Positions 2,262-45,970 of a DNA stretch of 64,000 bases are shown here, one piece after another (position 1 is the first letter of the stretch; every line of letters begins with the position of its first letter). The position numbers were made by a program, and so were the translations under genes. A model generated the notes under the pieces. The model saw nothing but the letters and a program-made list of their open reading frames with translations, had not been told where the DNA came from and did not search any database. Where the stretch lies: the IMG/VR virus record IMGVR_UViG_3300025647_000027, positions 5,936 through 69,935 of that record, one strand, 5' to 3'. Source of the DNA: a virus (lineage: Duplodnaviria; Caudoviricetes).

Positions 2262-2290
2262 AGGCCTACTTGACAGTGGGCCTTTTTTTT
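2262..2290 (+). terminator. Rho-independent terminator
   Basis: AGGCCTACT-TGAC-AGTGGGCCT stem followed by a T-run. Confidence 0.8.
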
Positions 2291-2301
2291 CATATATTTA
2301 C
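2270..2301 (+). promoter_or_regulatory. Promoter TTGAC-N18-TATATTTAC upstream of the tRNA cluster
   Basis: Same boxes and 18 nt spacing at 25349 and 32879. Confidence 0.65.
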
Positions 2302-2309
2302 AGTTATAT

Positions 2310-2380
2310 CGCGTGAAGGTGTAAAGGTTGCATGGGTGGTTCATATCCACTACGGGAGGGTTCGAATCCCTGACACGCTA
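2310..2380 (+). tRNA. tRNA with CAT anticodon (Met/fMet or Ile2), imperfect stems
   Basis: Acceptor stem GCGTG/CACGC, anticodon arm GGTGG-TTCATAT-CCACT, T arm AGGG-TTCGAAT-CCCT; C1:T72 mismatch and no encoded CCA. Confidence 0.75.
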
Positions 2381-2388
2381 CTAAGAAG

Positions 2389-2505
2389 ATCAACGCAGAA
2401 GGCACACAAGCAGTTGTAAAATAACAAAATGTGGCCGCCTGCGTAACAATCAACAGTGACCCGCAGCCCCACTAAGTTGTAAAAACAACAGGGCTGCTCA
2501 CTGTT
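2389..2505 (+). ncRNA. Candidate structured RNA: two tandem long hairpins with a shared apical motif
   Basis: Stems ACGCAG/CTGCGT and AACAGTGA/TCACTGTT plus GCAGCCC/GGGCTGC; both hairpins are capped by AGTTGTAAAA..AACA. Confidence 0.55.
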
Positions 2506-2509
2506 AAAT

Positions 2510-2582
2510 GCCCTTATAGCTCAGCTGATAGAGCGTCTTGTTTGTACCAAGGATGTCGTAGGTTTGAATCCTGCTAAGGGCT
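2510..2582 (+). tRNA. trnT: tRNA-Thr(TGT)
   Basis: Full cloverleaf: GCCCTTA/TAAGGGC, D arm GCTC/GAGC, anticodon arm TCTTG-TTTGTAC-CAAGG, T arm GTAGG-TTTGAAT-CCTGC; no encoded CCA. Confidence 0.92.
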
Positions 2583-2598
2583 CAATAAAGAGAGGAAA

Positions 2599-3153
2599 AT
2601 GAATGTATTTGAAATTGTAAACAATCAGGTTACATTTTCGCCACAAGCGTTAATGATTAAACCTTTTAGAGAAATATGGGATTGTGATAAATCCAAAGAT
2701 AAGTTTCAGGCATCTCAAGAGTTGTCTTATGTGTATTATATGGCAGATGAAAGATCTGACTACATGTATATACTTGATGAAGAAGAAAGGCATGATCAAG
2801 TCTGCTTAGATATAGATCTAGGAGACAATTGGATAAAGCCTAAGTATATAGATGAAGCAATAGTCTATTACAAGAGACTATCTGAGACAACTAGTACTAA
2901 ATTATTAGAGAGTACTCGTGGTGTAATTGAAAAAATATCATCTTTCTTAGATACTATTGATATCAATGAGAGAGATTTAAGAACAAATAAACCTATTCAT
3001 GACATTAACAAGATAACAGCTTCTGTTGAAAAAATACCAAAGCTAATTAAAGCTCTTAATGAAATTGAAAAGGAGATTATAAAGGAAAAAGAATTAAAAG
3101 CCCAATCTGGTAACAAGATTGTAGGAATATTTGATACCAATGAGGGAATTTAA
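2599..3153 (+). CDS. Conserved crAss-like protein, possibly terminase small subunit
   Basis: Helical 184 aa protein directly upstream of, and overlapping, TerL. Confidence 0.55.
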   Translation: MNVFEIVNNQVTFSPQALMIKPFREIWDCDKSKDKFQASQELSYVYYMADERSDYMYILDEEERHDQVCLDIDLGDNWIKPKYIDEAIVYYKRLSETTSTKLLESTRGVIEKISSFLDTIDINERDLRTNKPIHDINKITASVEKIPKLIKALNEIEKEIIKEKELKAQSGNKIVGIFDTNEGI

Positions 3154-5479
3154 TGAAACACAGACAGAGTTAACTAAAGAGTTGCTTATTGGATTAAAGA
3201 GGGAAGAAAGAGAAGACCTCTTAGCTGATATAGACTCAATTCAGTTTATTCAAAACTTAGCCAGCCCTACAAGGCCTAGGCTTAAGGATCTAGAAAGATG
3301 GGAGAATCCTCTCTTACCATTAAAGTCTGATGATCCGAATATGTCTGTAAGAAAATTAGATCCTAACGGAAGGATAGCTGTTGATCTTACTAATCCGCAT
3401 GTCTTAGAAGACATGGAGTATTTTAGACATGCTGCTATTCATTTTGAGAAACACGGATGTTACACAAAGTTGTTTCCAAATCAGAATCCAAACTCTGAGT
3501 ATTATAAGTTCTGGGCTGAAGAAGCTAGACGTTGCAGAGAAGGGTATATAAGAGAAAGTGATGGTGAATGGATACCTGGTAATTATTATTTTCAGTTAAA
3601 CTACGCGCCATTATTAAGAGCAGAAGTTATTGACGGAACAAAGCAATCAGATAGGGTTGAAGCGTTCCCTTTTGTATATGATGCAGATTACTGGTTCTAT
3701 CATTACGTAGAAATAGCAAGAGCACATGGTATGCATGGGGCTAATCTAAAAAGAAGGGGTTGTGGATATTCTGTAAAGGCAAGCACCATGTTAGCTAAGA
3801 ATTTTATCTTAGGTGACAGAACTAAATCAAGAAGTAAAGTTAAGTCTTTTGCAATAGCAAATGAAAAAGAATACTTAACTAAGGATGGGATACTAAATAA
3901 GTTTGTCTCAACAATAGATTTCTGCGCCTCACACACTCCATTTCCTCGTATACGCTCATTAAAAGATTCCTTAAATGACATGCACTGGAGAATGGGGCGC
4001 AAAGACACAAGAACTGGTACTGAGGTAGGGGTTCTAAATGAAGTTCTCGGTGTTACATTAAAGAATGATGCACAAAAGGCCAGGGGTAAAAGGGGTGCGT
4101 TAGTACTCTGGGAAGAAGCAGGTAAATTTGATGACTTCCTTACTGCTTGGGGTATTGCTAGACCTTCAGTTGAAGAATCCGGATATGCGTTTGGATTCAT
4201 GATGGCAGGTGGTACCGGTGGTGTTGAAGGTGGAGCCTTTGAGGGATTAGAAGAAATATTCTATAACTCAGCAGGACATAACATCTATTCAATGCCTAAC
4301 GTGTTTGATAGAAATGCTTTTGGAAAAGGTGAATGCGCATTTTTCTTTGGAACATATTTAAACTATACGGGTAAGTATGATAAGAATGGAAATAGCGATG
4401 TAATAGGCGCCTTAATTGAAATCAATAAAGCAAGAGCAATTGTTAAGTATGGATCTAGTGATCCTAATGCAATTATACAAAAGAAAGCTGAGGAACCTAT
4501 AACACCACAGGAAGCAATTATGCGTACACAGGGTACAGCATTTCCTGTTGCAGACTTAAGAGATTACTTAGAAGATATATTACCAAGATTACAAAGCTTC
4601 GTTGATGAACATTGGGTTGGTAATTTAACATATGATGAAAAGGGATTTGTAAAATGGGAAGTTGATTCTGATATAATCCCAATTAGAGAATATCCTTATA
4701 AAGTAAAAGGAGCTACATCTGATGGAGCAGTTGAGATATTTGAGATGCCACAAAAAGATAGAGATGGCAGAGTATTTCAAAACAGATACATAGCAGGAAT
4801 TGACCCTATTGATAATGATTACACAATTGGTGGATCCTTGGCAAGTATATTTGTATTTGATTTGTGGACAGATAAGATTGTAGCAGAATATACTGGAAGA
4901 CCAGTATTAGCAGATAGTTTTTACGAGCAGTGTTTAAGACTTACACAGTTCTACAATGCTCAAGCTAATTATGAAAATAACCTTAAGGGTTTATTTACTT
5001 ACTTTTCAAATAAGAATGCATTGCATTTATTGGCTGATAGTCCGGAGATACTTAGGGATATGGAAATTGTTAAATCAACATTATATGGTAATAGATCTAA
5101 AGGCACTAGAACAACTGCTGAAGTCATCAAGCTTGGTAAAACATTACAAAGACAGTGGATGTTATCCCAGTACGAACTTGAGGTTTTTAATGAAGAAACT
5201 GGTGATAGTGACCTTATTACTGTACCTAACCTCAGAAGAATAAGAAGTATTGGCTATATAAAAGAAGCTATTGCTTGGAATCCTGATATAAATACTGATA
5301 GAGTTTCAGCAATGGATATGGTGATGATTCTTAGAGAGGATAGAAAAAGGTACATAGATAAATTTGAAGAGAATAAGATAGAAGATCCTATTAGTCACTT
5401 CCATGATGATCCATTTTTAGATGAAAATTGGAACAAAGCAATGAGAAAAGCAGGATGGGAAAAGAGTGGTACGATATAG
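3140..5479 (+). CDS. terL: Terminase large subunit
   Basis: Walker A-like KRRGCGYS, Walker B VLWEEAG, coupling motif GGTGG, nuclease IAGIDPID and late DRVSA; ATG 3140 preferred over the track's TTG 3131. Confidence 0.93.
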   Translation: MREFNETQTELTKELLIGLKREEREDLLADIDSIQFIQNLASPTRPRLKDLERWENPLLPLKSDDPNMSVRKLDPNGRIAVDLTNPHVLEDMEYFRHAAIHFEKHGCYTKLFPNQNPNSEYYKFWAEEARRCREGYIRESDGEWIPGNYYFQLNYAPLLRAEVIDGTKQSDRVEAFPFVYDADYWFYHYVEIARAHGMHGANLKRRGCGYSVKASTMLAKNFILGDRTKSRSKVKSFAIANEKEYLTKDGILNKFVSTIDFCASHTPFPRIRSLKDSLNDMHWRMGRKDTRTGTEVGVLNEVLGVTLKNDAQKARGKRGALVLWEEAGKFDDFLTAWGIARPSVEESGYAFGFMMAGGTGGVEGGAFEGLEEIFYNSAGHNIYSMPNVFDRNAFGKGECAFFFGTYLNYTGKYDKNGNSDVIGALIEINKARAIVKYGSSDPNAIIQKKAEEPITPQEAIMRTQGTAFPVADLRDYLEDILPRLQSFVDEHWVGNLTYDEKGFVKWEVDSDIIPIREYPYKVKGATSDGAVEIFEMPQKDRDGRVFQNRYIAGIDPIDNDYTIGGSLASIFVFDLWTDKIVAEYTGRPVLADSFYEQCLRLTQFYNAQANYENNLKGLFTYFSNKNALHLLADSPEILRDMEIVKSTLYGNRSKGTRTTAEVIKLGKTLQRQWMLSQYELEVFNEETGDSDLITVPNLRRIRSIGYIKEAIAWNPDINTDRVSAMDMVMILREDRKRYIDKFEENKIEDPISHFHDDPFLDENWNKAMRKAGWEKSGTI

Positions 5480-5537: not shown

Positions 5538-7955
5538 ATGTCAACAGATAAAAGTTTTCCAAGACAAAAGTTGTCCTTTAAGCAAAAAGGACCTAAATGG
5601 AGACAATCCCACTTGGACTGGGCCGATCATAACAGTTACTTAAATAATACTGTTATACGTAGAAAATTTAAAGGAAAGAAAATAAACCTTGACCTTTACA
5701 ATGGTAAGGTGGACTTACGTGATATGAAATTAGTTCTTAATCCAGGTGGATTAGAACAACACTTTATTCCTGATGCTATTCAGCATTATCCAATTATAGC
5801 ACCACGAGTTAACGTACTTGTTGGTGAGGAGAAAAGACGTAAGTTTGATTGGACTGTACAAATAACTAATCCAGATACTGTATCTAAAATTAAGAAAGAT
5901 AAGATGGCCTTGATCCAAGCAAAGATTAAGGAATTCATTGGGTCTGACTTATCAGATGAAGAACTAGACAAAGAACTTCAAGCATACGGTGACTACATAA
6001 ACTTTGATTACCAGGATTTAAGAGAGAAGCGTGCTAACTTACTTATGCGCAGCTACATTGAGAAGCTAAACATGAAGATTAAGTTTCAGCAAGGCTTTAA
6101 GGATGCTCTTATTATGGGTGAAGAAATTTACATGTTCGACATTGTAAATGGTAAAGTTACATTTGAAAAATTAAACCCACTTAAAGTACATACATTAAGA
6201 TCAGGCTACTCTAATAGAATAGAAGATGCAGATGTTATTGTAATTGATGACTTCTGGAGCCCTGGTAAAATACAGGATACATTCTATGAGGATCTTAAAG
6301 ACGCTGATGTTAAGAAATTAGACAACGGAGAATTTAAAGGAGACGGAACAGATTTAGATGGAGAGAATTTAGCAATTGATGATAAAGAAGGATGGGAAAT
6401 ATACGAGAGAGAAACAATAAATTCATTTATAGAGTCATCTGGGATATTCGCAGGAAGTGGATCTCAAGGAAGAAACACGTACACAGACGGAGCAGGAAAC
6501 ATAAGAGTTCTTAGAATGTTCTGGAAGTCAATGAAGCAAATACAAAAGATAACTTACTTTGACACATTAGGTAAAAACCAAATTAAATTTAGATCTGAAG
6601 ATTATATCTTAGATGAAGCTAAAGGTGAGACATCAGAAAGGTTCTGGGTAACTCAATGGTGGAAAGGTGCTAAGATTGGTAAAGATACTTATGTTCAGAT
6701 CAAACCAAGAGAAATACAATACAATAAAATAAATGAGCCTTCATTCAATTCATGTGGAATAGTTGGCCAGATATATAATACAAATGAGCAAGAAGCCGTA
6801 TCTATGGTTGATAGAGCTAAGCCATTCCAATACCTGTTTGACATATCATGGTATAGAGTGAATGAAGCGCTATCTAAATACTTAGGTGCTATTGTTGAAT
6901 TAGATTTAGCTAAAATACCAACCGGGTGGAATGTAACAAAATGGTTATATTTTGCACGTAAGTCTGGGATATCTGTTGTTGACAGTTTTAAAGAAGGACA
7001 GAAAGGTATGGCAAAAGGAAAACTTGCCGGGTCAGTAGGAAATACAACTGGTAAGGTTTTAGAACAAAGAGTTGGAGATTTCATTCAAGTCCATATGGAA
7101 ATGATGGAATTTGCCTCAGCTAAGATGGACGAGATAACGGGCGTATCTAGGCAAAGATTAGGTCAGACTGAAAACAGAGAGACTATGGGTGGGATAGAAA
7201 GGGCCGTATCTCAGTCCAATCACATTACTGAGGAATTATTTACTCTTCATGATTACTGTAAGAAAAGATGTTTTGAAATATTAATTGAGACAGCTAAGAT
7301 TGCACTGAAGGGGCAAGAATTAAAATTCTCTTACATTGCTGATGACATGACTAGACAGATCATGGAAATTGACGGTGATCAGTTTGCTGAAGAAGAATAT
7401 GGTCTTGCTGTATCTAATGAAGATGGAATAAATCAAATCCAACAAAAATTAGATGGAATGATTCAATTAGGTTTACAAAACCAAATGATTACATTCTCTG
7501 CTGCTATGAAAATGTATAACTCACCATCTCTACGTGAAGTACAACGAATGATTGAGAAGGATGAGCAAGCAATGAAAGAGCAACAAGCTAAGCAAGGAGA
7601 AATGGAACAAAAACAACTTCAAGCTCAAATGGAGCAACAAGCTGCTAAAGAACTTAGAGATGAAGAAAGATCTGCTTATGAGTTTGATAGAGAAGATGAA
7701 ACTAAGAGATATATAGCTGAGCTTAAAGAAGAGACTGAAAGAATCAAGATGGCTAATGAAGAGAATGGTGTAGAGATGCCAGATGATAACGATGACTTAG
7801 ATTACGAAAAATTTAGAGCTGAGTTAGGCATCAAAGAGAAAACCCTTTCTCAAGATATGAAGAAGCATAATGATGTAATGTCTATAAAACAAAAAGAAGT
7901 AGCAATTAAGAACAAGGTAGCTAATAAACCAGTTCCTTCAAGCGCGAAGAAATAA
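5538..7955 (+). CDS. Portal protein
   Basis: 805 aa gene following TerL; FPRQKL, HYPIIAPRVNVLVGEE, GVSRQRLG and a C-terminal coiled-coil barrel, as in crAss-like portals. Confidence 0.9.
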   Translation: MSTDKSFPRQKLSFKQKGPKWRQSHLDWADHNSYLNNTVIRRKFKGKKINLDLYNGKVDLRDMKLVLNPGGLEQHFIPDAIQHYPIIAPRVNVLVGEEKRRKFDWTVQITNPDTVSKIKKDKMALIQAKIKEFIGSDLSDEELDKELQAYGDYINFDYQDLREKRANLLMRSYIEKLNMKIKFQQGFKDALIMGEEIYMFDIVNGKVTFEKLNPLKVHTLRSGYSNRIEDADVIVIDDFWSPGKIQDTFYEDLKDADVKKLDNGEFKGDGTDLDGENLAIDDKEGWEIYERETINSFIESSGIFAGSGSQGRNTYTDGAGNIRVLRMFWKSMKQIQKITYFDTLGKNQIKFRSEDYILDEAKGETSERFWVTQWWKGAKIGKDTYVQIKPREIQYNKINEPSFNSCGIVGQIYNTNEQEAVSMVDRAKPFQYLFDISWYRVNEALSKYLGAIVELDLAKIPTGWNVTKWLYFARKSGISVVDSFKEGQKGMAKGKLAGSVGNTTGKVLEQRVGDFIQVHMEMMEFASAKMDEITGVSRQRLGQTENRETMGGIERAVSQSNHITEELFTLHDYCKKRCFEILIETAKIALKGQELKFSYIADDMTRQIMEIDGDQFAEEEYGLAVSNEDGINQIQQKLDGMIQLGLQNQMITFSAAMKMYNSPSLREVQRMIEKDEQAMKEQQAKQGEMEQKQLQAQMEQQAAKELRDEERSAYEFDREDETKRYIAELKEETERIKMANEENGVEMPDDNDDLDYEKFRAELGIKEKTLSQDMKKHNDVMSIKQKEVAIKNKVANKPVPSSAKK

Positions 7956-8692
7956 TGGGTACAATAACACTAAGTATAGCAGCTGAGTCCAATCAACCAC
8001 CTAATAAACCAGGTTTTGTTGATATTACTCTTGCATATAATCAATTGTATACATTTACAGTTGATGATTTTACAACACTTGCAAGTCCACCATATTCAGA
8101 TCCTGAAGGTGATGCGTTTCAGAGTTTAAAAATATTAACGTTACCAGCGCAAGGTGTTTTAACACTAAACGCTATTGCGGTTGCTCCAAATGATATTGTA
8201 ACTTCAACTCAGCTTGGACTTGGATTACTAAAATATCAAGCTGATGTTTTAGATACTGATGGATATCTTTCTCATTTTGGATACACAACATCAGATGTTG
8301 GGTCTAGCACATTTAGTGTTCTTTCAGGTAAAGCTGTAATTGGTGTAGCTGCTCAAATTGCTAATCTACCTCCAACAGTTGTTGGTACTGGTTCCGCAAA
8401 AATTGCTTATGGTGAGACATTAGTATTTACAAGAGCTATGTTTACTTCAGCTACAACTCCTGCTTTTTCTGATCCGGAAGGTGATCCAGCACTATACTTA
8501 AAGATAACTAGCTTACCTACTCTTGGAGAAATTTTTATAAATGGAATTGAGGTAACAATTAATGATGTAATTGATTTTAATGATATAGATGCAGGTTTGT
8601 TAACATATGTTCCAGACTTAGCAGATATTGATGGAGATTTACAAGGATTTACATTTCAAATAGCAGATGTTTCTGGAATATTTGTAGGATAA
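7955..8692 (+). CDS. Virion protein with two Ig/cadherin-like repeats
   Basis: Two repeats of FT..(Y/F)SDPEGD...KI..LP..G; paralogous to 23111 and 24559. Confidence 0.7.
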   Translation: MGTITLSIAAESNQPPNKPGFVDITLAYNQLYTFTVDDFTTLASPPYSDPEGDAFQSLKILTLPAQGVLTLNAIAVAPNDIVTSTQLGLGLLKYQADVLDTDGYLSHFGYTTSDVGSSTFSVLSGKAVIGVAAQIANLPPTVVGTGSAKIAYGETLVFTRAMFTSATTPAFSDPEGDPALYLKITSLPTLGEIFINGIEVTINDVIDFNDIDAGLLTYVPDLADIDGDLQGFTFQIADVSGIFVG

Positions 8693-23110: not shown

Positions 23111-24067
23111 ATGACAGATAATAATGCAAATGTATTCGTATCATCAATGCTACGAATAGACAAAAGATTTAAGTTTTATGGAGCTGGCTCAATAGCCAAC
23201 ATTTCATTACTTAAAATGATATATAAATACGCTTGCTATTCTGATACGTATGTTACTCTTCAAAAGCTAGACGTAATGGTTAGTCTTCTTCAACAAAAAG
23301 ATCCAGATATCTGTATGAACACAATTAATGTGACAGGATCAGGTTTCTTCCCAGAAGATTCACCAGTAGTTGATATACCTGATAACGCAAGTAATACAGC
23401 TCCAACAATAAGTGCCAACACTATTACAGTGCCTGAGGCCATATATACATTTGCTGCTTCAGAATTCTTAGTTGGATTCGCTGATGCTGATGGTGATGGT
23501 AGTGGAAATATAGTTATAAAAACTTTACCCGGGGCCGGTACATTAAAATTAAGTGGAGTTGCAGTGACTGCTGGCCAGGTGATAACACAGGCTAATATTT
23601 TAAACTTAACGTATACAAGAAACGTAGATACAGCTTATGGAACTTCATTCACTTGGAGTGTATATGACAACAATCAGAATCCTATGCAATCTTCTCCAGC
23701 TACAATGACAGTTACAGTTCTATCTAATACAGAGAATGCTACTGCTGTGATAGGTGATAATACCATCTATCCTGCAAACAGAGCAATAACAACTCTTACA
23801 TTAGCTATGTTCACAACTGAGACAACTGATCCTTATTCTGACGCAGAAGGTGATTTACTTGCTGCAATTAGAATAGATGAGATTTCATTAGAGAATTCTG
23901 GAGTATTTAAGATAGCAGGAACACCAATAGTAGTTGGTGATATAATAACAAGAGCACAACTTTCAGCAGGAGATTTTACTCATGAGGGTCCTGATCAAGA
24001 TTCAGTTAACTCAGATGTATTTGCTTACTCTGCAAGGGATGAAGGTTCTTTAACTTGGGTTCAATAA
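23111..24067 (+). CDS. Virion protein with two Ig/cadherin-like repeats
   Basis: FADADGD and YSDAEGD repeats, paralogous to 7955. Confidence 0.65.
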   Translation: MTDNNANVFVSSMLRIDKRFKFYGAGSIANISLLKMIYKYACYSDTYVTLQKLDVMVSLLQQKDPDICMNTINVTGSGFFPEDSPVVDIPDNASNTAPTISANTITVPEAIYTFAASEFLVGFADADGDGSGNIVIKTLPGAGTLKLSGVAVTAGQVITQANILNLTYTRNVDTAYGTSFTWSVYDNNQNPMQSSPATMTVTVLSNTENATAVIGDNTIYPANRAITTLTLAMFTTETTDPYSDAEGDLLAAIRIDEISLENSGVFKIAGTPIVVGDIITRAQLSAGDFTHEGPDQDSVNSDVFAYSARDEGSLTWVQ

Positions 24068-24252
24068 TGTTTAGTAGATTAATAACAAGTAGAAAATTAT
24101 GGGGCGCTCTAATAGGGAGCGCCTGCATAATGATATTAGTAGTAATAACTCCTGAAAGCTCTATTGGAAATGTAGTAGCAATTGTAGGAGGATTATGGAT
24201 GGCAGCAATAGGTGGCCAAGCAGTATCTGACGCTTTAAAGAAAAAAGAATAA
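24067..24252 (+). CDS. Small two-TM membrane protein (holin-like)
   Basis: SRKLW motif and two hydrophobic helices; TAATG-coupled start at 24067. Confidence 0.6.
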   Translation: MFSRLITSRKLWGALIGSACIMILVVITPESSIGNVVAIVGGLWMAAIGGQAVSDALKKKE

Positions 24253-24548
24253 TGGCATTATTTACAATAACAAATAACGGAGGTAATCTTACAGAATTTA
24301 GTGTAAGCGCTATAACTGGTAATGGCTGTGCTTTAGCTGATCTTTCTCCATACAGTGCGTCGTTATGGCACAATGGGTTTGGTTCATATCCTGTAATAGG
24401 TGATATTATTTATACAACTAGTACTGGCGCAACAAAGGCAGTTAGTATTGGAGGCGTATTCAATGATAGTCATCTTCAAATGGGAAATCTCGAGTATTTA
24501 AAAACAGATGCTTCTGGAATAATGGTAGCTTTACGCTGTGAAGCATAA
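24252..24548 (+). CDS. Small virion-associated protein candidate
   Basis: 98 aa, beta-rich; N-terminus MALFTIT resembles those of neighbouring genes. Confidence 0.55.
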   Translation: MALFTITNNGGNLTEFSVSAITGNGCALADLSPYSASLWHNGFGSYPVIGDIIYTTSTGATKAVSIGGVFNDSHLQMGNLEYLKTDASGIMVALRCEA

Positions 24549-24558
24549 AATAAAAAAA

Positions 24559-25302
24559 ATGGCAATATTTAATGTAACAACAGGAGGAAGTGTAAACCTA
24601 CCTCCAACACAAGTAGGTGATATAACTATTGACTTAACGTTCAATGAGACTTACGTATTTACAATAGCTGATTTCACAACTCTAACCACTCCAGTTTATT
24701 CTGACCCGGAAGGAGACAGCGTACAATCAGTTAAGATATTAACTCTTCCAGCTGTTGGAGGATTATTATTATCTGCTGTTGCGGTTACTGTTGGTCAAGA
24801 AATAGCTTTAGCTGACATAACAGGTGGAAACTTAACGTATGTTGCCGATGTAGCACAAACGGCTGGATATACTGATTCAGCAATGACATTTAATATAGCT
24901 GATGATGGATCTGGTTCATATGGAGCAATAACTCCAGGAGTAGTTACATTTACAGCTGAAGCAGAGGTTAATCTTCCTCCAAGTTCAATAGGAAATCTTA
25001 CAATAAACCTTGTTTACGGTGAGTTCCATGTATTTACAAGAGCTAATTTTACAACAGAAACAACACCAGCTTATGTTGATCCAGAGGGAGATCCCGCATT
25101 GAATTTAAAGATATTATCTTTACCTGCAACTGGAAATTTGAAATTAAGTGCAGTAAATTGTACTGTAAATCAAGTTGTGCCATTTAGCTCTATTGATAGC
25201 GGACTTTTTACTTATGCTCCTAATGTGGCTATAACAACTGTACAAAATTTAACATTTGATTTTGCAATTGCTGACTCTGGTTCATTGCAATATTCATCAT
25301 AA
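24559..25302 (+). CDS. Virion protein with two Ig/cadherin-like repeats
   Basis: Full-length paralogue of 7955 (YSDPEGD, YVDPEGD); start at ATG 24559. Confidence 0.7.
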   Translation: MAIFNVTTGGSVNLPPTQVGDITIDLTFNETYVFTIADFTTLTTPVYSDPEGDSVQSVKILTLPAVGGLLLSAVAVTVGQEIALADITGGNLTYVADVAQTAGYTDSAMTFNIADDGSGSYGAITPGVVTFTAEAEVNLPPSSIGNLTINLVYGEFHVFTRANFTTETTPAYVDPEGDPALNLKILSLPATGNLKLSAVNCTVNQVVPFSSIDSGLFTYAPNVAITTVQNLTFDFAIADSGSLQYSS

Positions 25303-32859: not shown

Positions 32860-32878
32860 CTTTGTATGATAGTCAATA

Positions 32879-32910
32879 TTGACAATTAACGTCTTATTTC
32901 ATATATTTAC
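32879..32910 (+). promoter_or_regulatory. Promoter TTGAC-N18-TATATTTAC
   Basis: Recurrent bipartite motif ending 6 nt before ATG 32917. Confidence 0.65.
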
Positions 32911-32916
32911 AGTATA

Positions 32917-38028: not shown

Positions 38029-40296
38029 ATGAGTAACAGATTTTCACAAACTACAACAGCAGGATTTAAGGGTCTTTCCTTAGATGAGATAATGGCTATT
38101 CCATTAGCTAAACAAACTCGTCAGGATGCTTCATTGGCGGCAACTGATGAATTACAAGCGCTAGAAGCTAAAAGACTTGAGAGTGATGCTCCTGTCGTTG
38201 ATGCAGAATTAGAAAGAATTAGAAAGGAATCAGAACAGATTTCAAAAGACTTAATGGAAAGAGGTGTAGATAGAAACTTATCTAATAAACTTCGTAGTCT
38301 TAGATCATCTCAAAAGAAATCCTTTGGTGCTTCTGGAGTTGTTGGTCAATCTGAAGCTAACTATAAAGCGGCTCAGTCTTATATTAATAATCTTGCAACT
38401 AAGAAAGAACAACAAGCTGGATGGTCACCTCAACAAGCTAAAATATGGGCTACCTCACAGGTTAGTAATTTTGGCAGTTCATTTGATGAATTAGGTAATT
38501 TTAGACAGTTTCAAGGAGCAGGTATGTCTCAAAAGGTAGAGAGTAATGATTGGATTAATAAAAATCTAAAACTTATTGCTTCAGATACTAATCAAGAGAT
38601 GATGAAATATGCTGGTAATTTAGATCAATTCAATGAAGCATATGCCTCTGGTCTAGTTACAGAGAAAGACTTCAATAAGATTATGTCTTCCTTAACCATT
38701 ATGGCAGCTAATGATCCGGATTTACAAGCATCTCTAAAACAACAACAATTCTTTGACCCCAATGCAGGTGATCCAAAAAATATTGGATCATGGTCTGTAA
38801 AATACAGAGAAGATGGTACAAAGACTGACGTATTTACACCTGGTAATGAATTTGGTAGACAATTGTATGGCGCCGCATTAGGAGTTAAATCAATGGATAA
38901 GACATATAAGTTTCATTTTCAAACTGATATTGCTGCTAAAGCTTTATTTGAAGCTGGCCTTGAAGAAAAAGAAGCTAATGCATTAGTTAGAGCTGCTGAT
39001 GGTGTATTGAATACTATTACTCCTGATAATATTGATCAGATTAGAGAAAATACAGATTTAGCTTTAAAAGAACTTGATAGACAAACTGGTGCTTTAGCTG
39101 CTAACTGGACTCCAGAGAGAATAAAGGCTAATCCTGATGCGTATGCTTTAGCTCAAAAGAGTCTTAATGATTCTAAAGTTAAGTATTTTAATCTCCAGAA
39201 TAGAATTAAGAGTATAGAAAAAGAAACATTTAAAGAGCTTACTCCTGTTGAACAGGAAGGAAAAGTTTTATATGATAAATTAAGAGAGGGTATTCCAGGT
39301 TATGAACAAGCTAAAAATCAAGATGAGGTTATAACATCTTTAACTGATGCTATTAGAAAATTACCTGGCGGAAAAGAAGTTGTTGGAGAAAGTGGTACTT
39401 TAAGTGAGAGCGGAACAGGAAGTGATGAAATGGAGAATTTCTTAACTTCTAAATATCTAGAACTTAAAGGTGAGAAAGTTAACAAAAATTCAAGAGCAAA
39501 TAGAAGTATATTTAACTGGGTTGGTAGTGAAGACTTAGCTTATGATGATGGTATTGTAGATAAAATGAAAGATGGAGCAAGGGCCCTTAAAGATAAATCT
39601 AAAAAATATCTTGAGCAAAACCCTTATTCTGAATCGTATACTGAATTCGGAGCATTAAACTCTGGTAAGTATTCTAGTAGAATTGGTGCTATTAACCAAA
39701 ATCTAACAGATAATTTCCAAGGAGCTGGATACTCAGAAGCTTATACTGGTATGTCAATAAACCAATATGTTCAAGAGAATTATCCAACTGACCCTTCTTC
39801 AACTGAAGCTAAATATAACTTTGAAATAAGAGTTACGGATGGACTAGATGCCATGGGTTACCCAATTGAACACTTAGTTATTAAGGACAGAAATGGTTCT
39901 GTAATGGAAGTTAAAAGTGTAACAAGAGGTGAGGCTGGTAGAAAAGAACAAAGAGAAACTGGTATTGAGTTGATGAAATCTACTGATCCTACTCTACAAA
40001 AGAAAGGTAAACAAATGCTTGCTAATGATACTATGATGCCTATGATTAAACAAAATGGTGGACTTAGAACAGGAGCTGTTGAAGGTCAGTTTACAGGAGA
40101 ATACAGTAAAGTTGATGTAGATGGAAAGGAACTTCCAATAGTTTGGACTAAAGAAGAAATAGGTGGTCAAGAAATATGGAGAGTAAACGTTGGAGGATTT
40201 AAATCAAGAGAAATACACGGCGAAACAGATATGGCTTCATATCTTGCCGATGAATTATTAGCAGAAATAGATAAATATGGTACAGGAGACAATTAA
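38029..40296 (+). CDS. Cargo/ejection protein
   Basis: 755 aa helical protein two genes upstream of the virion RNAP. Confidence 0.7.
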   Translation: MSNRFSQTTTAGFKGLSLDEIMAIPLAKQTRQDASLAATDELQALEAKRLESDAPVVDAELERIRKESEQISKDLMERGVDRNLSNKLRSLRSSQKKSFGASGVVGQSEANYKAAQSYINNLATKKEQQAGWSPQQAKIWATSQVSNFGSSFDELGNFRQFQGAGMSQKVESNDWINKNLKLIASDTNQEMMKYAGNLDQFNEAYASGLVTEKDFNKIMSSLTIMAANDPDLQASLKQQQFFDPNAGDPKNIGSWSVKYREDGTKTDVFTPGNEFGRQLYGAALGVKSMDKTYKFHFQTDIAAKALFEAGLEEKEANALVRAADGVLNTITPDNIDQIRENTDLALKELDRQTGALAANWTPERIKANPDAYALAQKSLNDSKVKYFNLQNRIKSIEKETFKELTPVEQEGKVLYDKLREGIPGYEQAKNQDEVITSLTDAIRKLPGGKEVVGESGTLSESGTGSDEMENFLTSKYLELKGEKVNKNSRANRSIFNWVGSEDLAYDDGIVDKMKDGARALKDKSKKYLEQNPYSESYTEFGALNSGKYSSRIGAINQNLTDNFQGAGYSEAYTGMSINQYVQENYPTDPSSTEAKYNFEIRVTDGLDAMGYPIEHLVIKDRNGSVMEVKSVTRGEAGRKEQRETGIELMKSTDPTLQKKGKQMLANDTMMPMIKQNGGLRTGAVEGQFTGEYSKVDVDGKELPIVWTKEEIGGQEIWRVNVGGFKSREIHGETDMASYLADELLAEIDKYGTGDN

Positions 40297-43200
40297 TGAT
40301 CCTTTAGACTTAAGCATTGTAGAGAACGCATCAACAGATGAGACGTTAATGCAAAAAGATCCTCAAGAGGATACTAAGCCTAAGGCTAAAGCTAAGTTTG
40401 CTAGTGTTGACCCTACTGAAGAAGTTGTAGCTGATGACCCTAATAACGGTAAAGCTAAATTTTCAGGTGGAGGCCCACAGGTTGTTCAAGATAAAATGTA
40501 TAAAGGATTAGATATCGAAGATTATACAGACTATCTTGGATCTAACATCTTTATGCCTACTGGTGGCGTTGACGCTTTAAATAAGCAACGCGCTATGAAT
40601 CAATCCGGTTGGGAGCAAGCAGGTAATATGCTTGGTCAAGCTGTTGTTGGTGAAATTGTAGGTGGTACTATTGAAGGTTTAGGTTACATCTTAGATGTTG
40701 GTAGCGCACTGGATTATATGACTGGTAATGAAAAGGACTGGGGTAACTTTATGACTGAAGCTGGTAAAGGATTAAGAACATGGAGTCAAGATGCAATGGC
40801 TATACATACTGTTAATCCAGGTAAATTTGATCCGGGAGATTCAGGATGGTGGTTTAGTAACGGTGTTAGTGTAGCTTCTACATTAAGCATGCTTATCCCT
40901 TCTATGGCTGCAACCAAAGCATTAGGCTTCTTGGGTAAGGGAGCAAGTAAGCTTGGTGGTAAATTCTCTAAGATACTTGATGTTGCAGGAAACATGGGTA
41001 AACAAGCTACATGGATGACAGAAGGTATTTCTCAAGCAATAGTATCTAGACATATAGAAAATTCTATGGAAGCTAGTGGCACATTCGAAAGTGCAAAAGC
41101 TGATTACTTAACAAGAACAAATAAAGAAACAGGATTACCATTTACTGAAGAAGAAGCAACTAAATTAGCTTCTGAGGCCGCTGCTTCTAACTACAATAAA
41201 GGCTGGGCCATGTTACTTCAAGATATACCCCAGTATTTAGCATTAGGTAAAATCTTCAATCCTCACACAGGTAGAATGGAGAATGCTTTATCTAAGGCTT
41301 CTCAAAAAGGTAAACAATTAAAATTAAAACCATGGCAACAAAAAGTTGGTAGTGGAATTGGAACATTCTTGTCTGAAGGTTTTGAAGAATCTTACCAATA
41401 TTATATTGCAGAACAAGGTAAAGCACTTGCTGATCTAAATGCTGGATTAATCACAAGAGATAAGTATAATGAGATCATGTCTGACGCCATTGGCTCTGAC
41501 GAGATGATGACTTCTGCATTCTTTGGTGGATTAGGTGGTAATTTATTTCAAATGGCAGGTAAGGGCTTAAATGAGCTCGGAAAAGGAAAGAAAAGAAGAG
41601 AATTCGAAAGCAATTACGAGGAAACTTATAGGTCTACACTTAATGATCGTGCTAAGAATTTCATGTCTATGCAACAAAGGCTAGCTGATGCTGACAACAA
41701 CGATAATGTTGAGGCCAGAGAGATGGTATTAGATGAAATGATGTTGATGATGACTACTGATGCACTGCACCGTGGTAAATTTGATCAACATATTGAATCT
41801 CTTCAAGGTATAGCTAACATGACTAAAGAAGAAGCTAAAGCTTTAGAACAACAAGGTGGTGGTGAATTCAATTTAGAATTAGCTAAGAAGAGTATTCCTG
41901 AAATAATCAAAAAGTCTGAAGAGATGAGATTAGATTATTTGAAGTTCTCTAACAAATACGAAGGTAATATTGCGGCTAAAATGGCCCAAAACAATTACAG
42001 AACTAAAAGATTTGTTGAAAACTCAAAGAAGATGGATGAAAAAATCCAATCTACTACTTATTCTGTTCCGAATATTAATGCTATGTCTACAACTCAACTT
42101 AATAAAGTTGAAGGAGTAATTAAGTTAAGAGCTTTAGCTGAAATGAATCAAGCATTTAAAGATCAACTTAAATCAGGTAAAGTAAGTGAGTTAAGAAAAC
42201 CACATATTGAAAAAATCATAAAAGAAAATGAGGCTAGAATATCTAAGCTAACTAAACAATATGATGCTGAAAATAAAGATGATCCAAGAGATGCTGACAA
42301 AAAGAGAGAAGATTCTAGGATAGCGCAAGGTTTCACAAAAGATATCACTGATGAGCTTGTTCAAGCTAATATGGTTAAGGAGCGTAATAACGCAGAGATA
42401 ATGCTTAATCAATTAGAGAATGATGCTATTCGTAGTGAAAGTTATAGAAATGGCCTTAAAAAAGAAGCTTTAAAAGAAAAGGTTAACTCTAAAATAGAGA
42501 ATGAAGAGCAAGGTGAGGCTATTAAGAAGGAAATTGAAGATGCTCCATTCTTAACTAAGGATGAAAAAGCTGCTGAACTTGCTACTGTTAATGAGAATAT
42601 AGAGGAATTAGCTAATGAGGCTGCTGTTGCTCAAGAATATAAGAATGATGAGGCTAGAGAAGCTGAGAAGTTAGCTGCTGTTAATGAAGCTAAGAAAGAT
42701 ACTAAGACTATAACCAATGCTAACAATGCTAAGGTTAATGATAACGTAGAAGATGAGTTCGCTGAGGAGCAAACTACTGTCTCTAAGATTACTAAAAGCA
42801 AAGAGAAGTCACAAGATAGAGCTATTAATACTAAAGCGTATAAGAACATAAAGGTTCCTATGTATGCTAATCTTAATGGTCCTGGTTGGAAAGACTGGGT
42901 GTTTAATGGTAAGGACAAAACTGGAATCAAGGATGGCAAACCAGTCATTTTAGATTTTGTAATAGGTGATCCTGGTGGAAAATATTCGCAATTAGCCCAA
43001 CAGGCAATTAATATTTACAACAGAGCTAAGGCTAATCCTAAAAACAAGCTTACATCTGAGGAAAAAGATATTTTATTTAATCATCTTCCTATAAAGATTC
43101 AACTTACTGAAGAGATTTGGTCATATATACCTGCATTCTCTCCATCAAATACATTCTTTAAAACTAATGAATTGCCAAAAAGAGAGGCTATCATTAGACA

Positions 43201-45970
43201 GATGTTTAAAGGAAACACTAAAACTCAAGTTACTTATCAATTTGGAGGAAACTTACATGTTGAAGAAACTGAAGATAACACTGTACCTGAAAACAATATA
43301 ATGGATTTCCCATTTATTGATGGTAATATGGGTAAAGTAGACTTAATGGTCACTAATGAAAATGGTACTTTAGTTAAGGCTAGTGATAAAACAGATCATC
43401 CTGACTTTGAAGGATTACAAATAGATGTATTAAGAACACAAGATGACAAAGGAAATCCAGTGCCTTACAAAGGTGGTGTATTTTTAAATGTTCCTAAGGC
43501 TAATGGAGATCCATTTCCTTTAAAACTTAACCTAAGACGTCCAACAACAGTAGAAGCTACATTTGTTGCAGACTTACTTATAGCTGTTATTACCAAGAAG
43601 CTTGGTAAAGAGGCTAGATTAAGTGAACATCCTGAGTTATTTAAAAGATTTAAAGAAGATCATCCTTCTGAATTTGCTGTATTAGGTAAAGATGCTAAAA
43701 CAATGGATGTTGCTAAATTATTTGTACATATGACAGCTGAAACAGCAGGTAAAGAAACTCATTTACACTTAACAGGTGAATGGATTCATTATGGTACAGA
43801 TATGAAAGCTGCTGTTACTCCTAAAAATGTAGTTGACAATAGAGATGCTCTTATTGGATTTATACAAGACTTCAAGAGACGTCAACTTAATCTTAAACAA
43901 TGGAATGATGCTGTAATAGGTCCTAAGTATAGAGAAATGATGACTAATGGTGTAATGTCTACTGACGCTGTTGTTGGTACTGAGAAGCCATTATTTAATG
44001 AGAATAAAACTCTTGGCCGTGACAATGGATTACCTCCATTTAAGTTTGATATAGGATTTGCTGTGCCTGAAGATACTCCCGAAGTTACTGAAGTGAGCCC
44101 TAAGGAAGCAACTAAGACTAACAAAGATATTGATTCTAGACAAGCAGCTTCTGATAATGCTGGTGTTGTTGATGAAAGGGAAAAAGGCTTTGCCGGCGTA
44201 TTCTTTGATAAAAATAGAAAAAGAATTCCAGTATACGGTAAAAATGCTGACATGGTTCGTAAGCTAATAAAGGAAAGATATGATGCTGAAAGATTATCTC
44301 AACCTGCTCAAAAAGCAGCTACTGTTATTAAGGAAGTTCCTACTCAAGAAATAACAATAGATCCATTAAGTAAATCAATAGATGCACAAAAAGCTGAAAT
44401 AGAAAGAAGAAGACAAGAAGAGTTAAAAGATACAGGGGCTACAGACAACAATCTAACAAATGGAAGTAAATGGAGAAAAGTCGAAGTCAAAGAAAATGGC
44501 AAAATCATCCCATTTAATAACTTTACTGTTAAACTAGATGAAGCTATTAAGCTAGCATCTGTAATGGATATAAATAAAGATTTTGGTAAAGATGATAAAT
44601 TTAAAGGGTATGGGTGGAAAGCATACATTGCATTAGGGAAAGAGTTAGATAAGTTAGGTTATAGTTTTATAGCTTCTAAAAATTTATCAGATGGTGCTAT
44701 TAAAACTTGGGATAAGTTAGTTGAAAAAGGATATGCTTATAAAAGAGGAGATAGAAGTTATAAATTTCAAAATAAAGAAAATTCTTCTAATAAATACAAT
44801 AAATATTTTGATACATTAAAAGAAGCTGCTTTTAACCAATTAAATAGTATGTTTGGTAATATACCGTACAGTTCTATTGAAGATTATAAATCTGTTATTG
44901 ATGTTGAAAAAGACAATAATAAAATGGCAGAAGGTTTAAAAAGAACCCTTTCTGCTTATGATGCTAAAGATTATAATATTATAGAGGAATATGGATATAA
45001 AAATATAATAGACGATATATCAAATAATGACCTTTCATTTGAAAAAAGTAACAAAAATGATAATCTAAATTTAGAAGTAGAGTTGATTGAAGATAAAAGA
45101 TTTGATAAAATCAACGCTAAATATGATGCTGAATTAGCTGCTTTAGAAAATAATGAAAAAGCTAATATAGAAAAAAGAAGACAAGAAGAGAGGATAGTAC
45201 ACACAGATATAGATAAAAAGGGGAGAAAACATACTTATTTTACAAAAACTACAGAAAAAGACGGGTTAACTAAAACAAAGTTTACTTTCAATAGAAGTGA
45301 TAAAGATTCTACACAAAGAAACACTGCATCTGTACCTACAGATATTGCTTTAGGGGATAAATATGTAATACCAAAAGAAACAAAAAATGCTGATGGAAGT
45401 ATGTCTGACCAAATTCCTGAAGACACTATTGTACATTCTGTTTTAGAAATAAGAGAAGGAGATGGTAAAATAGGAGCTACTGTAATGTTTCAAGGTAAAA
45501 ATGACCCCACTATAAGGTGGAAAGGAGATATTGTTTTAGAAATCAATGCTGAATATGATGCAGAAATAGCTGCTTTAGGTGATACTACTGTTGAAGATTC
45601 TTCAACTGATCCTGTTTCTAATGGTATTTGGAAAAAGTTTATTGACAAAGGCGATGTATCTAAAATTCAATTAAATAAGATTGCTAAAAAAATTGCTTCA
45701 AATGATTTGCTTTCTTCAAGAGAAAACGCTATCTTTACAGGCAAGACTGCTGAGATAAATGAAATTCTTGTAGATTTACGCGCTTCAGAAGAAGTTAAAG
45801 CTAGAAATAAAATGGCACAAAGAGAATTAAAAGCTAATAAGAACGTAGAAGTAGAGTCTTCTGAAGAAGCAAAAGATGCTGAGAAGATTGATAAAAAACA
45901 AAACACAAAAGAAATAGATCCTAACGTAATTAAAACTGAAGAACAGGGAGACTGGGATTGTATAATATAA
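40277..45970 (+). CDS. Giant cargo/ejection protein with C-terminal polyvalent cassettes
   Basis: 1897 aa; TM-like glycine-rich N-terminal segments, EGFEESYQY motif, coiled coils, bracketed inserts at 44.1-45.6 kb. Confidence 0.8.
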   Translation: MVQETINDPLDLSIVENASTDETLMQKDPQEDTKPKAKAKFASVDPTEEVVADDPNNGKAKFSGGGPQVVQDKMYKGLDIEDYTDYLGSNIFMPTGGVDALNKQRAMNQSGWEQAGNMLGQAVVGEIVGGTIEGLGYILDVGSALDYMTGNEKDWGNFMTEAGKGLRTWSQDAMAIHTVNPGKFDPGDSGWWFSNGVSVASTLSMLIPSMAATKALGFLGKGASKLGGKFSKILDVAGNMGKQATWMTEGISQAIVSRHIENSMEASGTFESAKADYLTRTNKETGLPFTEEEATKLASEAAASNYNKGWAMLLQDIPQYLALGKIFNPHTGRMENALSKASQKGKQLKLKPWQQKVGSGIGTFLSEGFEESYQYYIAEQGKALADLNAGLITRDKYNEIMSDAIGSDEMMTSAFFGGLGGNLFQMAGKGLNELGKGKKRREFESNYEETYRSTLNDRAKNFMSMQQRLADADNNDNVEAREMVLDEMMLMMTTDALHRGKFDQHIESLQGIANMTKEEAKALEQQGGGEFNLELAKKSIPEIIKKSEEMRLDYLKFSNKYEGNIAAKMAQNNYRTKRFVENSKKMDEKIQSTTYSVPNINAMSTTQLNKVEGVIKLRALAEMNQAFKDQLKSGKVSELRKPHIEKIIKENEARISKLTKQYDAENKDDPRDADKKREDSRIAQGFTKDITDELVQANMVKERNNAEIMLNQLENDAIRSESYRNGLKKEALKEKVNSKIENEEQGEAIKKEIEDAPFLTKDEKAAELATVNENIEELANEAAVAQEYKNDEAREAEKLAAVNEAKKDTKTITNANNAKVNDNVEDEFAEEQTTVSKITKSKEKSQDRAINTKAYKNIKVPMYANLNGPGWKDWVFNGKDKTGIKDGKPVILDFVIGDPGGKYSQLAQQAINIYNRAKANPKNKLTSEEKDILFNHLPIKIQLTEEIWSYIPAFSPSNTFFKTNELPKREAIIRQMFKGNTKTQVTYQFGGNLHVEETEDNTVPENNIMDFPFIDGNMGKVDLMVTNENGTLVKASDKTDHPDFEGLQIDVLRTQDDKGNPVPYKGGVFLNVPKANGDPFPLKLNLRRPTTVEATFVADLLIAVITKKLGKEARLSEHPELFKRFKEDHPSEFAVLGKDAKTMDVAKLFVHMTAETAGKETHLHLTGEWIHYGTDMKAAVTPKNVVDNRDALIGFIQDFKRRQLNLKQWNDAVIGPKYREMMTNGVMSTDAVVGTEKPLFNENKTLGRDNGLPPFKFDIGFAVPEDTPEVTEVSPKEATKTNKDIDSRQAASDNAGVVDEREKGFAGVFFDKNRKRIPVYGKNADMVRKLIKERYDAERLSQPAQKAATVIKEVPTQEITIDPLSKSIDAQKAEIERRRQEELKDTGATDNNLTNGSKWRKVEVKENGKIIPFNNFTVKLDEAIKLASVMDINKDFGKDDKFKGYGWKAYIALGKELDKLGYSFIASKNLSDGAIKTWDKLVEKGYAYKRGDRSYKFQNKENSSNKYNKYFDTLKEAAFNQLNSMFGNIPYSSIEDYKSVIDVEKDNNKMAEGLKRTLSAYDAKDYNIIEEYGYKNIIDDISNNDLSFEKSNKNDNLNLEVELIEDKRFDKINAKYDAELAALENNEKANIEKRRQEERIVHTDIDKKGRKHTYFTKTTEKDGLTKTKFTFNRSDKDSTQRNTASVPTDIALGDKYVIPKETKNADGSMSDQIPEDTIVHSVLEIREGDGKIGATVMFQGKNDPTIRWKGDIVLEINAEYDAEIAALGDTTVEDSSTDPVSNGIWKKFIDKGDVSKIQLNKIAKKIASNDLLSSRENAIFTGKTAEINEILVDLRASEEVKARNKMAQRELKANKNVEVESSEEAKDAEKIDKKQNTKEIDPNVIKTEEQGDWDCII
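44390..45577 (+). repeat. Paired bracket repeats KAxIExRRQEE / INAxYDAExAAL
   Basis: Left brackets at 44390-44425 and 45158-45193, right brackets at 45110-45145 and 45542-45577; similar at the DNA level too. Confidence 0.85.

Follow-up and report, generated by a model that had tools for sequence, protein, structure and literature searches.

The DNA analysed here, a 64,000-nucleotide (nt) stretch of the IMG/VR virus record IMGVR_UViG_3300025647_000027 (positions 5,936 to 69,935 of that record, hereafter "the window"), carries two adjacent hairpins at 2389-2505, just upstream of a long operon for packaging and structural proteins. Both hairpins are true copies of a small folded RNA module, previously undescribed, that is found in some aquatic crAss-like phages. 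Across related phages the stems of this module keep their pairing while their sequence varies, and a short 5' flank changes together with a complementary stretch of the apical loop, which suggests an H-type pseudoknot. All positions given without a locus name are those of the window.

Two folded units in the window

Broadly, the two hairpins have the same layout and different sequences. Reading the sequence places ATCAAC at 2389-2394 and again at 2449-2454, a spacing of 60 nt, and the corresponding loop motifs, AGTTGTAAAATAACA and AGTTGTAAAAACAACA, start at 2412 and 2475, respectively (in summary form AGTTGTAAAA). When 2384-2509 of the plus strand was folded with RNAfold, exactly two hairpins were obtained, at 2393-2444 and 2452-2505, with an energy of -46.6 kcal/mol. 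Shuffled sequences averaged -24.2 (z = -6.72), and none of 200 was as stable. Folded as single units, copy 1 and copy 2 reached z = -4.55 and z = -5.61, respectively. The original prediction for this segment had described the ATCAAC pair, the two hairpins and a list of their stems, all of which were reproduced by the sequence reading and RNAfold, and it had also noted a GC-richer spacer, which is borne out by a G+C fraction of 0.47-0.48 across 2301-2550 vs. 0.26-0.40 on either side. Since the minus strand of the region folds about equally well (-52.1 kcal/mol, z = -6.31), the strand on which the element acts is not identifiable by folding alone.

Copy 1 (2389-2444, plus strand) has its CAAC flank at 2391-2394, a lower stem at 2395-2398/2439-2442 that can be extended to 2393/2444, an upper stem at 2401-2408/2430-2436, and an apical loop with GUUG at 2413-2416 and an A-run at 2418-2421. 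Copy 2 (2449-2505, plus strand) has the CAAC flank at 2451-2454, a lower stem at 2455-2459/2498-2502, extendable to 2452/2505, an upper stem at 2463-2469/2491-2497, and a loop with GUUG at 2476-2479 and an A-run at 2481-2485. Only the flank and the loop motif are common to both units, and the stems differ.

A shared plan with covarying stems

The open reading frame (ORF) that follows the hairpins encodes a gp16-like protein and is itself followed by TerL, and these two proteins served as anchors for four scans: the gp16-like protein against viral contigs (21 loci), a gp16-like alignment against viral contigs (22) and against metagenome contigs (21 loci), and TerL against viral contigs (80 loci kept of 100). 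The leader was defined as the stretch from a conserved promoter motif to the gp16-like ORF, and 41 distinct leaders, across which the promoter motif is kept, were extracted. In 19 of the 41 the leader is 8-33 nt long and insert-free, the promoter running straight into the ribosome site, and 22 carry inserts of 84-755 nt that are mosaics of transfer RNAs (tRNAs) and small non-tRNA hairpin modules. Hairpins of the window type occur in 11 of these 22 insert-bearing leaders, and also at loci L008, L147 and L163, where the promoter is lost at the contig end. Curation, which was partly guided by flank-loop complementarity, gave a total of 20 units of 45-60 nt at 14 loci (1-3 per locus, 0-3 per phage), and 20 out of 20 lie on the gene (sense) strand, downstream of the conserved late promoter and upstream of the gp16-like ORF.

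These units follow one plan, in which a 4-nt 5' flank (NAAN, after a pyrimidine) precedes a lower stem of 3-6 base pairs (bp), a small asymmetric internal loop, an upper stem of 5-8 bp, and an apical loop that contains NUUN, the complement of the flank, and then an A-run. An alignment made with MAFFT (A2) has 20 rows, namely 19 curated units and L070, a doubtful candidate from outside the clade, and 18 of these 20 rows, folded singly, were at z <= -2.48.

Covariance models, built stepwise and blind to the pseudoknot, connect the window to the other phages. The first model (R1) was made from five UAAG-type units, all from other phages, and recovers copy 2 of the window with a score of 22 bits (E-value 0.015 in 180 kilobases, kb), with 12 out of 12 modelled pairs standard even though flank and loop differ at both variable positions. 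Units L148, L001b and L019 were added to give R2, and L008u2 (E = 0.0013) and L001a (E = 0.027) were then added to give R3. Over 502 kb of related and unrelated loci, R3 returned 14 matches at E <= 5, of which 13 are units or their duplicates, and copy 2 is its only match at E <= 5 in the whole 69.9 kb record. Copy 1, which is not in the model, scores 16.5 bits under R3 (E = 0.27 in 80 kb, 1.7 in 502 kb) and is a weak member; L007 is also weak (E = 0.42), and L004, L163u1 and L147 come near E = 10.

In the 13-row model alignment, 99.3% of 141 stem cells are paired, a level that none of 500 shuffles attained (69.0% in shuffles). The fitting of this alignment to the structure flatters the comparison, although the shuffle and slide controls remain far off. 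Both sides changed in 10 of the 12 stem pairs, and pairing falls to 31-51% when the partner is slid by 1-3 columns. Selection for structure, with pairing kept while sequence varies, is thus supported for the stems, and the suggestion of such selection in the original prediction extends to the relatives, whose homologous units keep both stems through compensatory changes.

Covariation between flank and loop

The NAAN flank and the NUUN of the loop were compared on A2 only, because the model alignment (A6) sets the flank one column apart in two classes. MAFFT, which is blind to pairing, placed all flanks of A2 in columns 4-7 and all loop NUUN motifs in columns 30-33. Across these columns, 97.5% of 80 cells can pair vs. 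81.2% after shuffling (0 of 500), and slides give 11-50%. The central two A-U pairs are nearly invariant, and the variation lies in the outer pairs, one of which is CG in 11 rows, UA in 7, UG in 1 and otherwise in 1, and the second CG in 13, GC in 6 and UA in 1. Both-side changes are seen in two out of four flank-loop pairs, in 7 sequences each.

Counted by unit, the flank/loop types are CAAC/GUUG (7 units), UAAC/GUUA (4), UAAG/CUUA (3), CAAG/CUUG (1), CAAU/AUUG (1), and two wobble forms, UAAG/CUUG with a U.G pair (1) and UAAG/UUUA with a G.U pair (1, L205). The remaining 2 units are mismatched (C.A in L148 and A.G in L163u2), so that five Watson-Crick types occur and pairing is full in 18 of the 20 units. 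The same upstream spacer precedes window copy 2 and L163u3, yet the former is CAAC/GUUG and the latter CAAU/AUUG, which reads as a double change at one orthologous site.

The order of strands along a unit (flank, 5' strands of the stems, loop complement, A-run, 3' strands of the stems) is that of an H-type pseudoknot. Loop bases that can pair with the flank, and covariation in support of that pairing, are both present, and the flank-loop covariation suggests that the module forms such a pseudoknot, with an A-rich third loop. The apex had originally been described as a nested GTTGT/A(T/C)AAC stem, and this stem is indeed part of the fold of both window copies, but it is absent from most relatives. 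In the aligned sequences, the conserved apical feature is the complementarity of the loop GUUG to the CAAC of the ATCAAC flank, and not a nested apical stem.

Several points weigh against this pseudoknot or against the coherence of the family. In the window copies the loop GUUG(U) is engaged in a nested apical stem of 5 bp, and the lower stem is lengthened by the final 2-3 bases of the flank; a 4-bp pseudoknot would displace 7-8 nested pairs there, and therefore may not be the ground state. A rival partner for the flank is common, the minimum-energy folds of 17 out of 20 A2 rows pairing the flank's final base with the base just past the stem, and a 4-bp helix across a hairpin of 12-15 bp needs a sharp bend. 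The two mismatched units lack full flank-loop pairing, and L205 pairs only through G.U and has a weak A-run. The hairpins of L004 and L007 fold no better than shuffles (z = -0.33 and -0.70), R3 misses L163u2, L163u3, L164u2 and L152 and recovers copy 1 weakly, and the minus strand of the window region is slightly more stable by fold than the plus strand. Finally, the units were picked partly by complementarity. A rescan made without the complementarity rule gave 72 flank/loop combinations, of which 14 are complementary, and was dominated by alternative flanks and tRNA arms; the reverse strand gave 32 combinations (6 complementary) and five shuffles 103 (17 complementary), figures too noisy to serve as a clean control. 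With such competitors, the flank-loop helix may be transient or partner-dependent.

Distribution and position of the module

The leader differs even between very close relatives. In the closest relative (L001), the gp16-like protein and TerL are each 98% identical to those of the window and two units lie in the same place, but their upper stems are not alignable with those of the window and a tRNA-Phe stands where the window has a tRNA-Thr. The leader is therefore an exchange hot spot. Neither of two related virus records searched gave a match, among them a 90.5 kb relative, estimated to be 92% complete, which is without a unit anywhere. Likewise, pattern search and R3 found no units beyond the two leader copies in the window's 69.9 kb record. 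The module is an accessory element.

The original prediction had set the hairpins between two tRNA genes, a placement that does not define the module, since in the L004-L007 type and the L019 type a single unit is the sole element of an 84-87 nt leader with no tRNA. Most units are packed close to tRNAs. At 10 of the 14 loci a unit closes the leader, 15-27 nt ahead of the start codon, and at the other four (the window, L001, L148 and L171) a tRNA is last before the ORF, with a gap of 4-5 nt from the unit to that tRNA. Packing can be tighter on the other side: the flank begins 1-2 nt past the tRNA discriminator base in L151 (tRNA end 1426/7, flank start 1428) and L152 (tRNA end 1430/1, flank start 1432), and in L163 it overlaps the encoded CCA.

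To gauge spread, a strict descriptor was run over both strands of 734 kb and gave 46 distinct hits, 13 of them (12 units) in leaders. Among annotated phages, DNA-level relatives were limited to tRNA-to-tRNA matches in 3 records. Pattern scans of viral contigs for spread outside the clade returned at least 117 and at least 119 stretches, which were then folded, and among the matches listed one convincing candidate stood outside the clade, L070:5186-5250, in an unrelated phage with no tRNA nearby (hairpin CAAC...GUUG-UAAAA, z = -3.98). This candidate was rejected as a member and is probably not of the family: its relative L098 (~2379-2435) shares the 5' half and leaves the 3' half unpaired. A stretch in L140 was ambiguous on folding, and R3 found no match in L070, L098, L140 or the crAss001 locus (L263). 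As far as these scans tell, among the matches listed, the module is confined to one aquatic clade of crAss-like phages.

Comparison with known RNA and DNA elements

The segment matches no Rfam family. The Rfam tRNA model found nothing over 2389-2505 at E <= 10 and ARAGORN was silent on the units, and the best overlap among Rfam 15 families over 2389-2505 was Mahella-1, at chance level (17.7 bits vs. a gathering score of 70.7, E = 0.99). Over the units of 11 related loci, no family, tRNA included, was matched at E <= 1. The outcomes that the original prediction had named as counting against it, a match to a degenerate tRNA or known family and a lack of covariation in homologues, were thus not observed: no Rfam family matches and the stems covary. 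Its statement that neither hairpin is a cloverleaf or a terminator likewise agrees with the silence of the tRNA model and with the sequences after the hairpins, GTAACAAT and AAATGCCC, neither of which is a T-run; an intrinsic terminator was accordingly rejected, the only terminator-like site in 2100-2700 being at 2262-2283.

Other candidates were also set aside. A dispersed palindromic repeat of the repetitive extragenic palindromic (REP) or miniature inverted-repeat transposable element (MITE) type was rejected given the two leader copies, the only ones in the 69.9 kb record, and the variable stem sequence. A ToxI-like type III antitoxin was rejected as the tandem units are not near-identical, their stems differing, and as no toxin gene is adjacent, the neighbours being an ORF in the GroES position, the gp16-like ORF, TerL and the portal. 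An integron attC site would have the complement at the 3' end, whereas here it is in the loop. IS200/IS605-type ends, a CRISPR-repeat mimic, a T-loop and an anticodon-loop mimic were dropped by inspection, and small self-cleaving ribozymes were rejected because all Rfam ribozyme families were silent. We found no description of the module in the literature; a catalogue drawn from IMG/VR holds 8,495 unnamed candidate structured RNAs (PMC10690425), and the module may be among them.

Proposed structure, processing and rival explanations

We favour, short of proof, an element that acts at the RNA level, because it always lies on the gene strand, is biased towards G-U pairs on that strand (37 on the plus strand vs. 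25 on the minus strand, the plus strand being the more stable in 14 of the 20 A2 rows), shows wobble forms in the flank-loop helix, is absent in many relatives and is not dispersed. Each hairpin represents one copy of the 45-60 nt structured module of this aquatic crAss-like clade. In this module the 4-bp flank-loop helix may stack on the upper stem at its apical end and be crossed by the A-rich stretch, and the lower stem, which the first connecting segment forms with the 3' tail, would be placed alongside the upper one. The modules would be transcribed from the late promoter within an untranslated leader shared with phage tRNAs, and RNase P and tRNA 3'-end nucleases would cut at the tRNA borders. 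As units lie 0-10 nt from tRNA ends, tRNA processing would excise them: in the window one fragment of ~120 nt would hold both hairpins, or trimming would yield them one by one, and at some loci the cut would fall directly at the flank, the new 5' end being tucked into the loop. The product would be a compact small RNA resisting end-dependent nucleases, and where the module is last before the ORF it would instead give the late messenger RNA (mRNA) a structured 5' end. We infer pseudoknot formation, transcription, processing and stability, and we give this structural and processing picture a probability of about 0.5.

Release as a discrete small RNA, which had been proposed from the window alone, is plausible and fits the tight packing against tRNAs. 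A role in trans is suggested by the cassette-like distribution beside tRNAs and by tandem copies that have different stems and the same loop; as a guess, the released RNA might bind a host or phage protein, as accessory cargo like the neighbouring tRNAs. The decoy or anti-defence RNA of the original prediction is likewise a guess, and any particular trans target deserves much lower confidence than the structural picture. It is tempting to go further and to speculate that the units represent a functionally new class of accessory RNA in phages. In this view a pseudoknot that caps itself would be freed from tRNA arrays by the nucleases of tRNA processing, and its conserved loop and A-run would bind a host factor (e.g., a ribonuclease or a defence sensor) and titrate or redirect it. 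Such a cassette would move together with tRNAs, and with two or more further structured RNA modules that are likewise undescribed, as part of a non-coding RNA island where the late operon begins; we consider this proposal rather unlikely as a whole.

The main rival, which we regard as possible but doubtful, is an action in cis: the units might stabilise the 5' end of the gp16-like/TerL mRNA, enhance translation from a place close ahead of the start codon, or, like put RNA, modify RNA polymerase so that it reads through the ~54 kb operon. Their constant place in the sense leader, immediately past a promoter overlapping a terminator and ahead of a long, co-directional operon (2599-56546), speaks for such a role, as do the 10 loci where the unit comes last before the start codon and the short leaders of the L004-L007 and L019 types, where it stands alone. 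In the window, L001, L148 and L171, however, a tRNA lies between the unit(s) and the ORF, and its processing would detach the unit from both mRNA and polymerase; moreover, 19 of the 41 leaders are insert-free, the operon of the 92%-complete relative works without the module, and a cis cap needs no 2-3 tandem copies with different stems. A cis role fits the 10 loci in which a unit borders the ribosome site, and not the window. Alternatively, the units could be structural filler or processing spacers, plain stable hairpins that prevent misfolding of the adjacent tRNAs and mRNA, block Rho or exonucleases, or mark cleavage, with a complementarity that has no role. They do fill slots of tRNA arrays with tRNA-like spacing, keep only the pairing of stems that are free in sequence, share their leaders with other structured modules and, in the window copies, have a nested fold more stable than a pseudoknotted one would be. 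A filler, on the other hand, needs neither a conserved loop of NUUN plus A-run nor a flank that tracks the loop through five Watson-Crick types, and single units exist with no tRNA to insulate, which makes this explanation improbable to us.

A DNA-level element, whether a site for packaging (pac) or recombination that is extruded as a hairpin beside the terminase genes, or a small palindromic repeat that is mobile, would suit a position just upstream of the gp16-like ORF and TerL, the equal folding of the minus strand in the window, and leaders that are mosaic between phages whose neighbouring proteins are 98% identical. Against it stand the features that favour RNA, including the G-U bias and the wobble forms, together with an orientation that is always that of the gene strand and a copy number of 0-3. 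Further, a pac site could not be missing from the many close relatives that lack the module, and a mobile repeat would keep its stem sequence, which varies here, and would be expected elsewhere in the 69.9 kb record, where none is repeated; we hold this explanation to be very improbable. Decayed tRNA remnants would account for the tRNA slot, and the upstream neighbour at 2310-2380 is itself decayed-looking, but the silence of the tRNA searches described above and the units' own conserved architecture leave this as the least credible of the explanations considered.

Genomic context of the leader

The window represents the arm of a crAss-like phage genome devoted to packaging and structure, in a 69.9 kb viral contig estimated to be 72% complete, and all its large ORFs from 2599 to 56546 are on the plus strand. 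The leader holds, in order, a promoter-like site, a tRNA-like element, hairpin 1, hairpin 2 and a tRNA-Thr, and is followed by the gp16-like ORF and then TerL. On its upstream side, a terminator-like hairpin and T-run (2262-2290, plus strand; stem 2262-2283 of 9 pairs, then TTTTTTTCAT) closes the gene in the GroES position, whose ORF had no PHROG match. The promoter-like site (2270-2298, plus strand) consists of TTGACA, a 17 nt spacer and TATATT, with 11 out of 12 consensus positions, and its -35-like TTGACA sits in the loop of the terminator-like hairpin, an overlap of terminator and promoter that recurs upstream of the leader in relatives. From this site the leader transcript would start near 2305. 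A copy of the promoter block, 75% identical, lies at 32866-32913, directly before the ORF at 32917. From this arrangement we infer that the hairpins lie in the transcribed, untranslated leader of the packaging/structural operon.

The two tRNAs that had been proposed to flank the hairpins differ in standing. The downstream tRNA-Thr(UGU) (2510-2583, plus strand) is sound, being the only tRNA that ARAGORN found in the window and scoring 59.6 bits with the Rfam model (E = 4.4e-12), and it begins 4 nt after copy 2. The upstream element (2310-2380, plus strand, anticodon CAT) scores 25.2 bits with the Rfam tRNA model, below the gathering score of 29 (E = 0.012), was missed by ARAGORN, and carries non-standard pairs at both ends of its acceptor and T stems; it is probably a decayed or atypical tRNA-Met. 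At the same position L001 has a tRNA-Met called by ARAGORN (L001:2616-2689), while L002 (1378-1488) and L003 retain only about the first 23 nt of the window's element, followed by unrelated sequence. Taken together, this looks like tRNA decay or replacement in a hot spot.

The operon begins with the gp16-like ORF (2599-3153, plus strand, 184 amino acids; phrog_16390 at 6.3e-13), a homologue of crAss001 Gp16, followed by TerL (3131-5479, plus strand; phrog_6681 at 2.7e-102) and the portal (5538-7955, plus strand; phrog_6547 at 2.2e-125). In crAss001, the gp16 gene is flanked by a GroES-like gene on one side and TerL on the other. The structural arm ends with two giant ORFs (40277-45970 and 45996-56546; 1,897 and 3,516 amino acids), in a position that matches the place where crAss-like phages carry the virion RNA polymerase and neighbouring giant proteins. 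Within structural ORFs, diverged direct repeats of 58-130 nt and 60-74% identity occur at 8055-8527 and 23796-25134; they share TTACA...TCTGATCC.GAAGGTGA and are probably repeated protein domains.

Other modules and ORFs in the leaders

The same leaders hold a second undescribed module of ~85 nt, with a conserved 5' half (TTGTTCCGYCGT ... TCGCTACCA ... GGGAC) and a 3' hairpin in which 11 out of 11 predicted pairs show compensatory changes. It has no Rfam match, often directly precedes a UAAG-type unit, and was located at L008:82-164, L145:1015-1097, L146:104-186, L151:1267-1349, L153:1411-1493, L164:989-1071, L167:1102-1184, L171:536-618, L178:1016-1098 and L234:1356-1438. A third non-tRNA block of ~90 nt, closed by AGAAAG...CTTTCT and containing TTGGGGATCAGGGCCTC, lies inside tRNA arrays (L147:~610-700 and L145:~1280-1380), also with no Rfam match. 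The array of L147 (39-1427) comprises 15 tRNA genes called by ARAGORN, all in the orientation of the gene strand and within the ~1.4 kb that precede the gp16-like ORF, and is followed by one unit; the whole array would lie in the late leader. Finally, short ORFs lie between the promoter and the RNA modules in some long leaders (L148:~1215-1345, L171:~870-1060 and L001:2246-2600).

Significance and relation to known systems

Phage tRNA clusters are usually annotated as tRNAs and "spacers", and the spacers described here are a conserved, covarying fold with a pseudoknot-type signature, set in a recombination hot spot that they share with tRNAs and with one or more further covarying RNA modules. 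If the module does cap a tRNA-processed 5' end, it would let tRNAs sit in an mRNA leader without 5'-end-dependent decay. The clade is tractable, as it offers natural variants with 0, 1, 2 or 3 copies.

By fold, the nearest known systems are H-type pseudoknots with an A-rich third loop, such as the preQ1-I and SAM-II aptamers and viral frameshift pseudoknots. The module has the same order of elements (5' strand of helix 1, 5' strand of helix 2, 3' strand of helix 1, A-rich loop, 3' strand of helix 2) and a short first helix, but unlike in riboswitch and frameshift pseudoknots its first connecting segment pairs with the 3' tail as the lower stem. It also differs from riboswitches in having no expression platform, no evident conserved core of the ligand type and no Rfam match, and in that a tRNA can precede the ORF. 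By position, and by description only, the nearest is the put RNA of phage HK022, a processive antiterminator made of two adjacent stem-loops that follow closely on a phage promoter where a long operon begins. The hairpins studied here likewise lie just downstream of a promoter at the head of a long operon; unlike put, they come as 1-3 units, are lacking in many relatives, and can be separated from the operon by a tRNA processing site.

ToxI RNAs consist of tandem direct units of a few tens of nt, each a pseudoknot with A-rich single strands, and phage pseudo-ToxI, a mimic that can serve as anti-defence, escapes type III toxin-antitoxin systems. Tandem units and the logic of a pseudoknot are common to ToxI and the module, whereas ToxI repeats are near-identical and lie beside a toxin gene, and the module has differing stems, can occur as single units, and has tRNAs, the gp16-like ORF and TerL as neighbours. 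In 5' stabiliser hairpins, e.g., that of the ompA 5' untranslated region, a stable hairpin stands near the 5' end of the transcript with no free single-stranded tail; such hairpins need no conserved loop or flank-loop pairing, and at 4 of the 14 loci the unit would be cut off from the mRNA by a tRNA.

By kind, and again by description only, the nearest analogues are RNAC and RNAD, which are located in the tRNA gene region of phage T4. A 2022 study describes them as late RNAs "of yet unknown functions" (PMC9697503). Like them, the module would be a late, small non-coding phage RNA, though host and phage family differ and the module is shorter and present in 0-3 copies. We know of no report of flank-loop complementarity in RNAC or RNAD. 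Should the module prove stable and trans-acting, it would stand beside these RNAs as a new class on the short list of phage small RNAs that accompany tRNAs.

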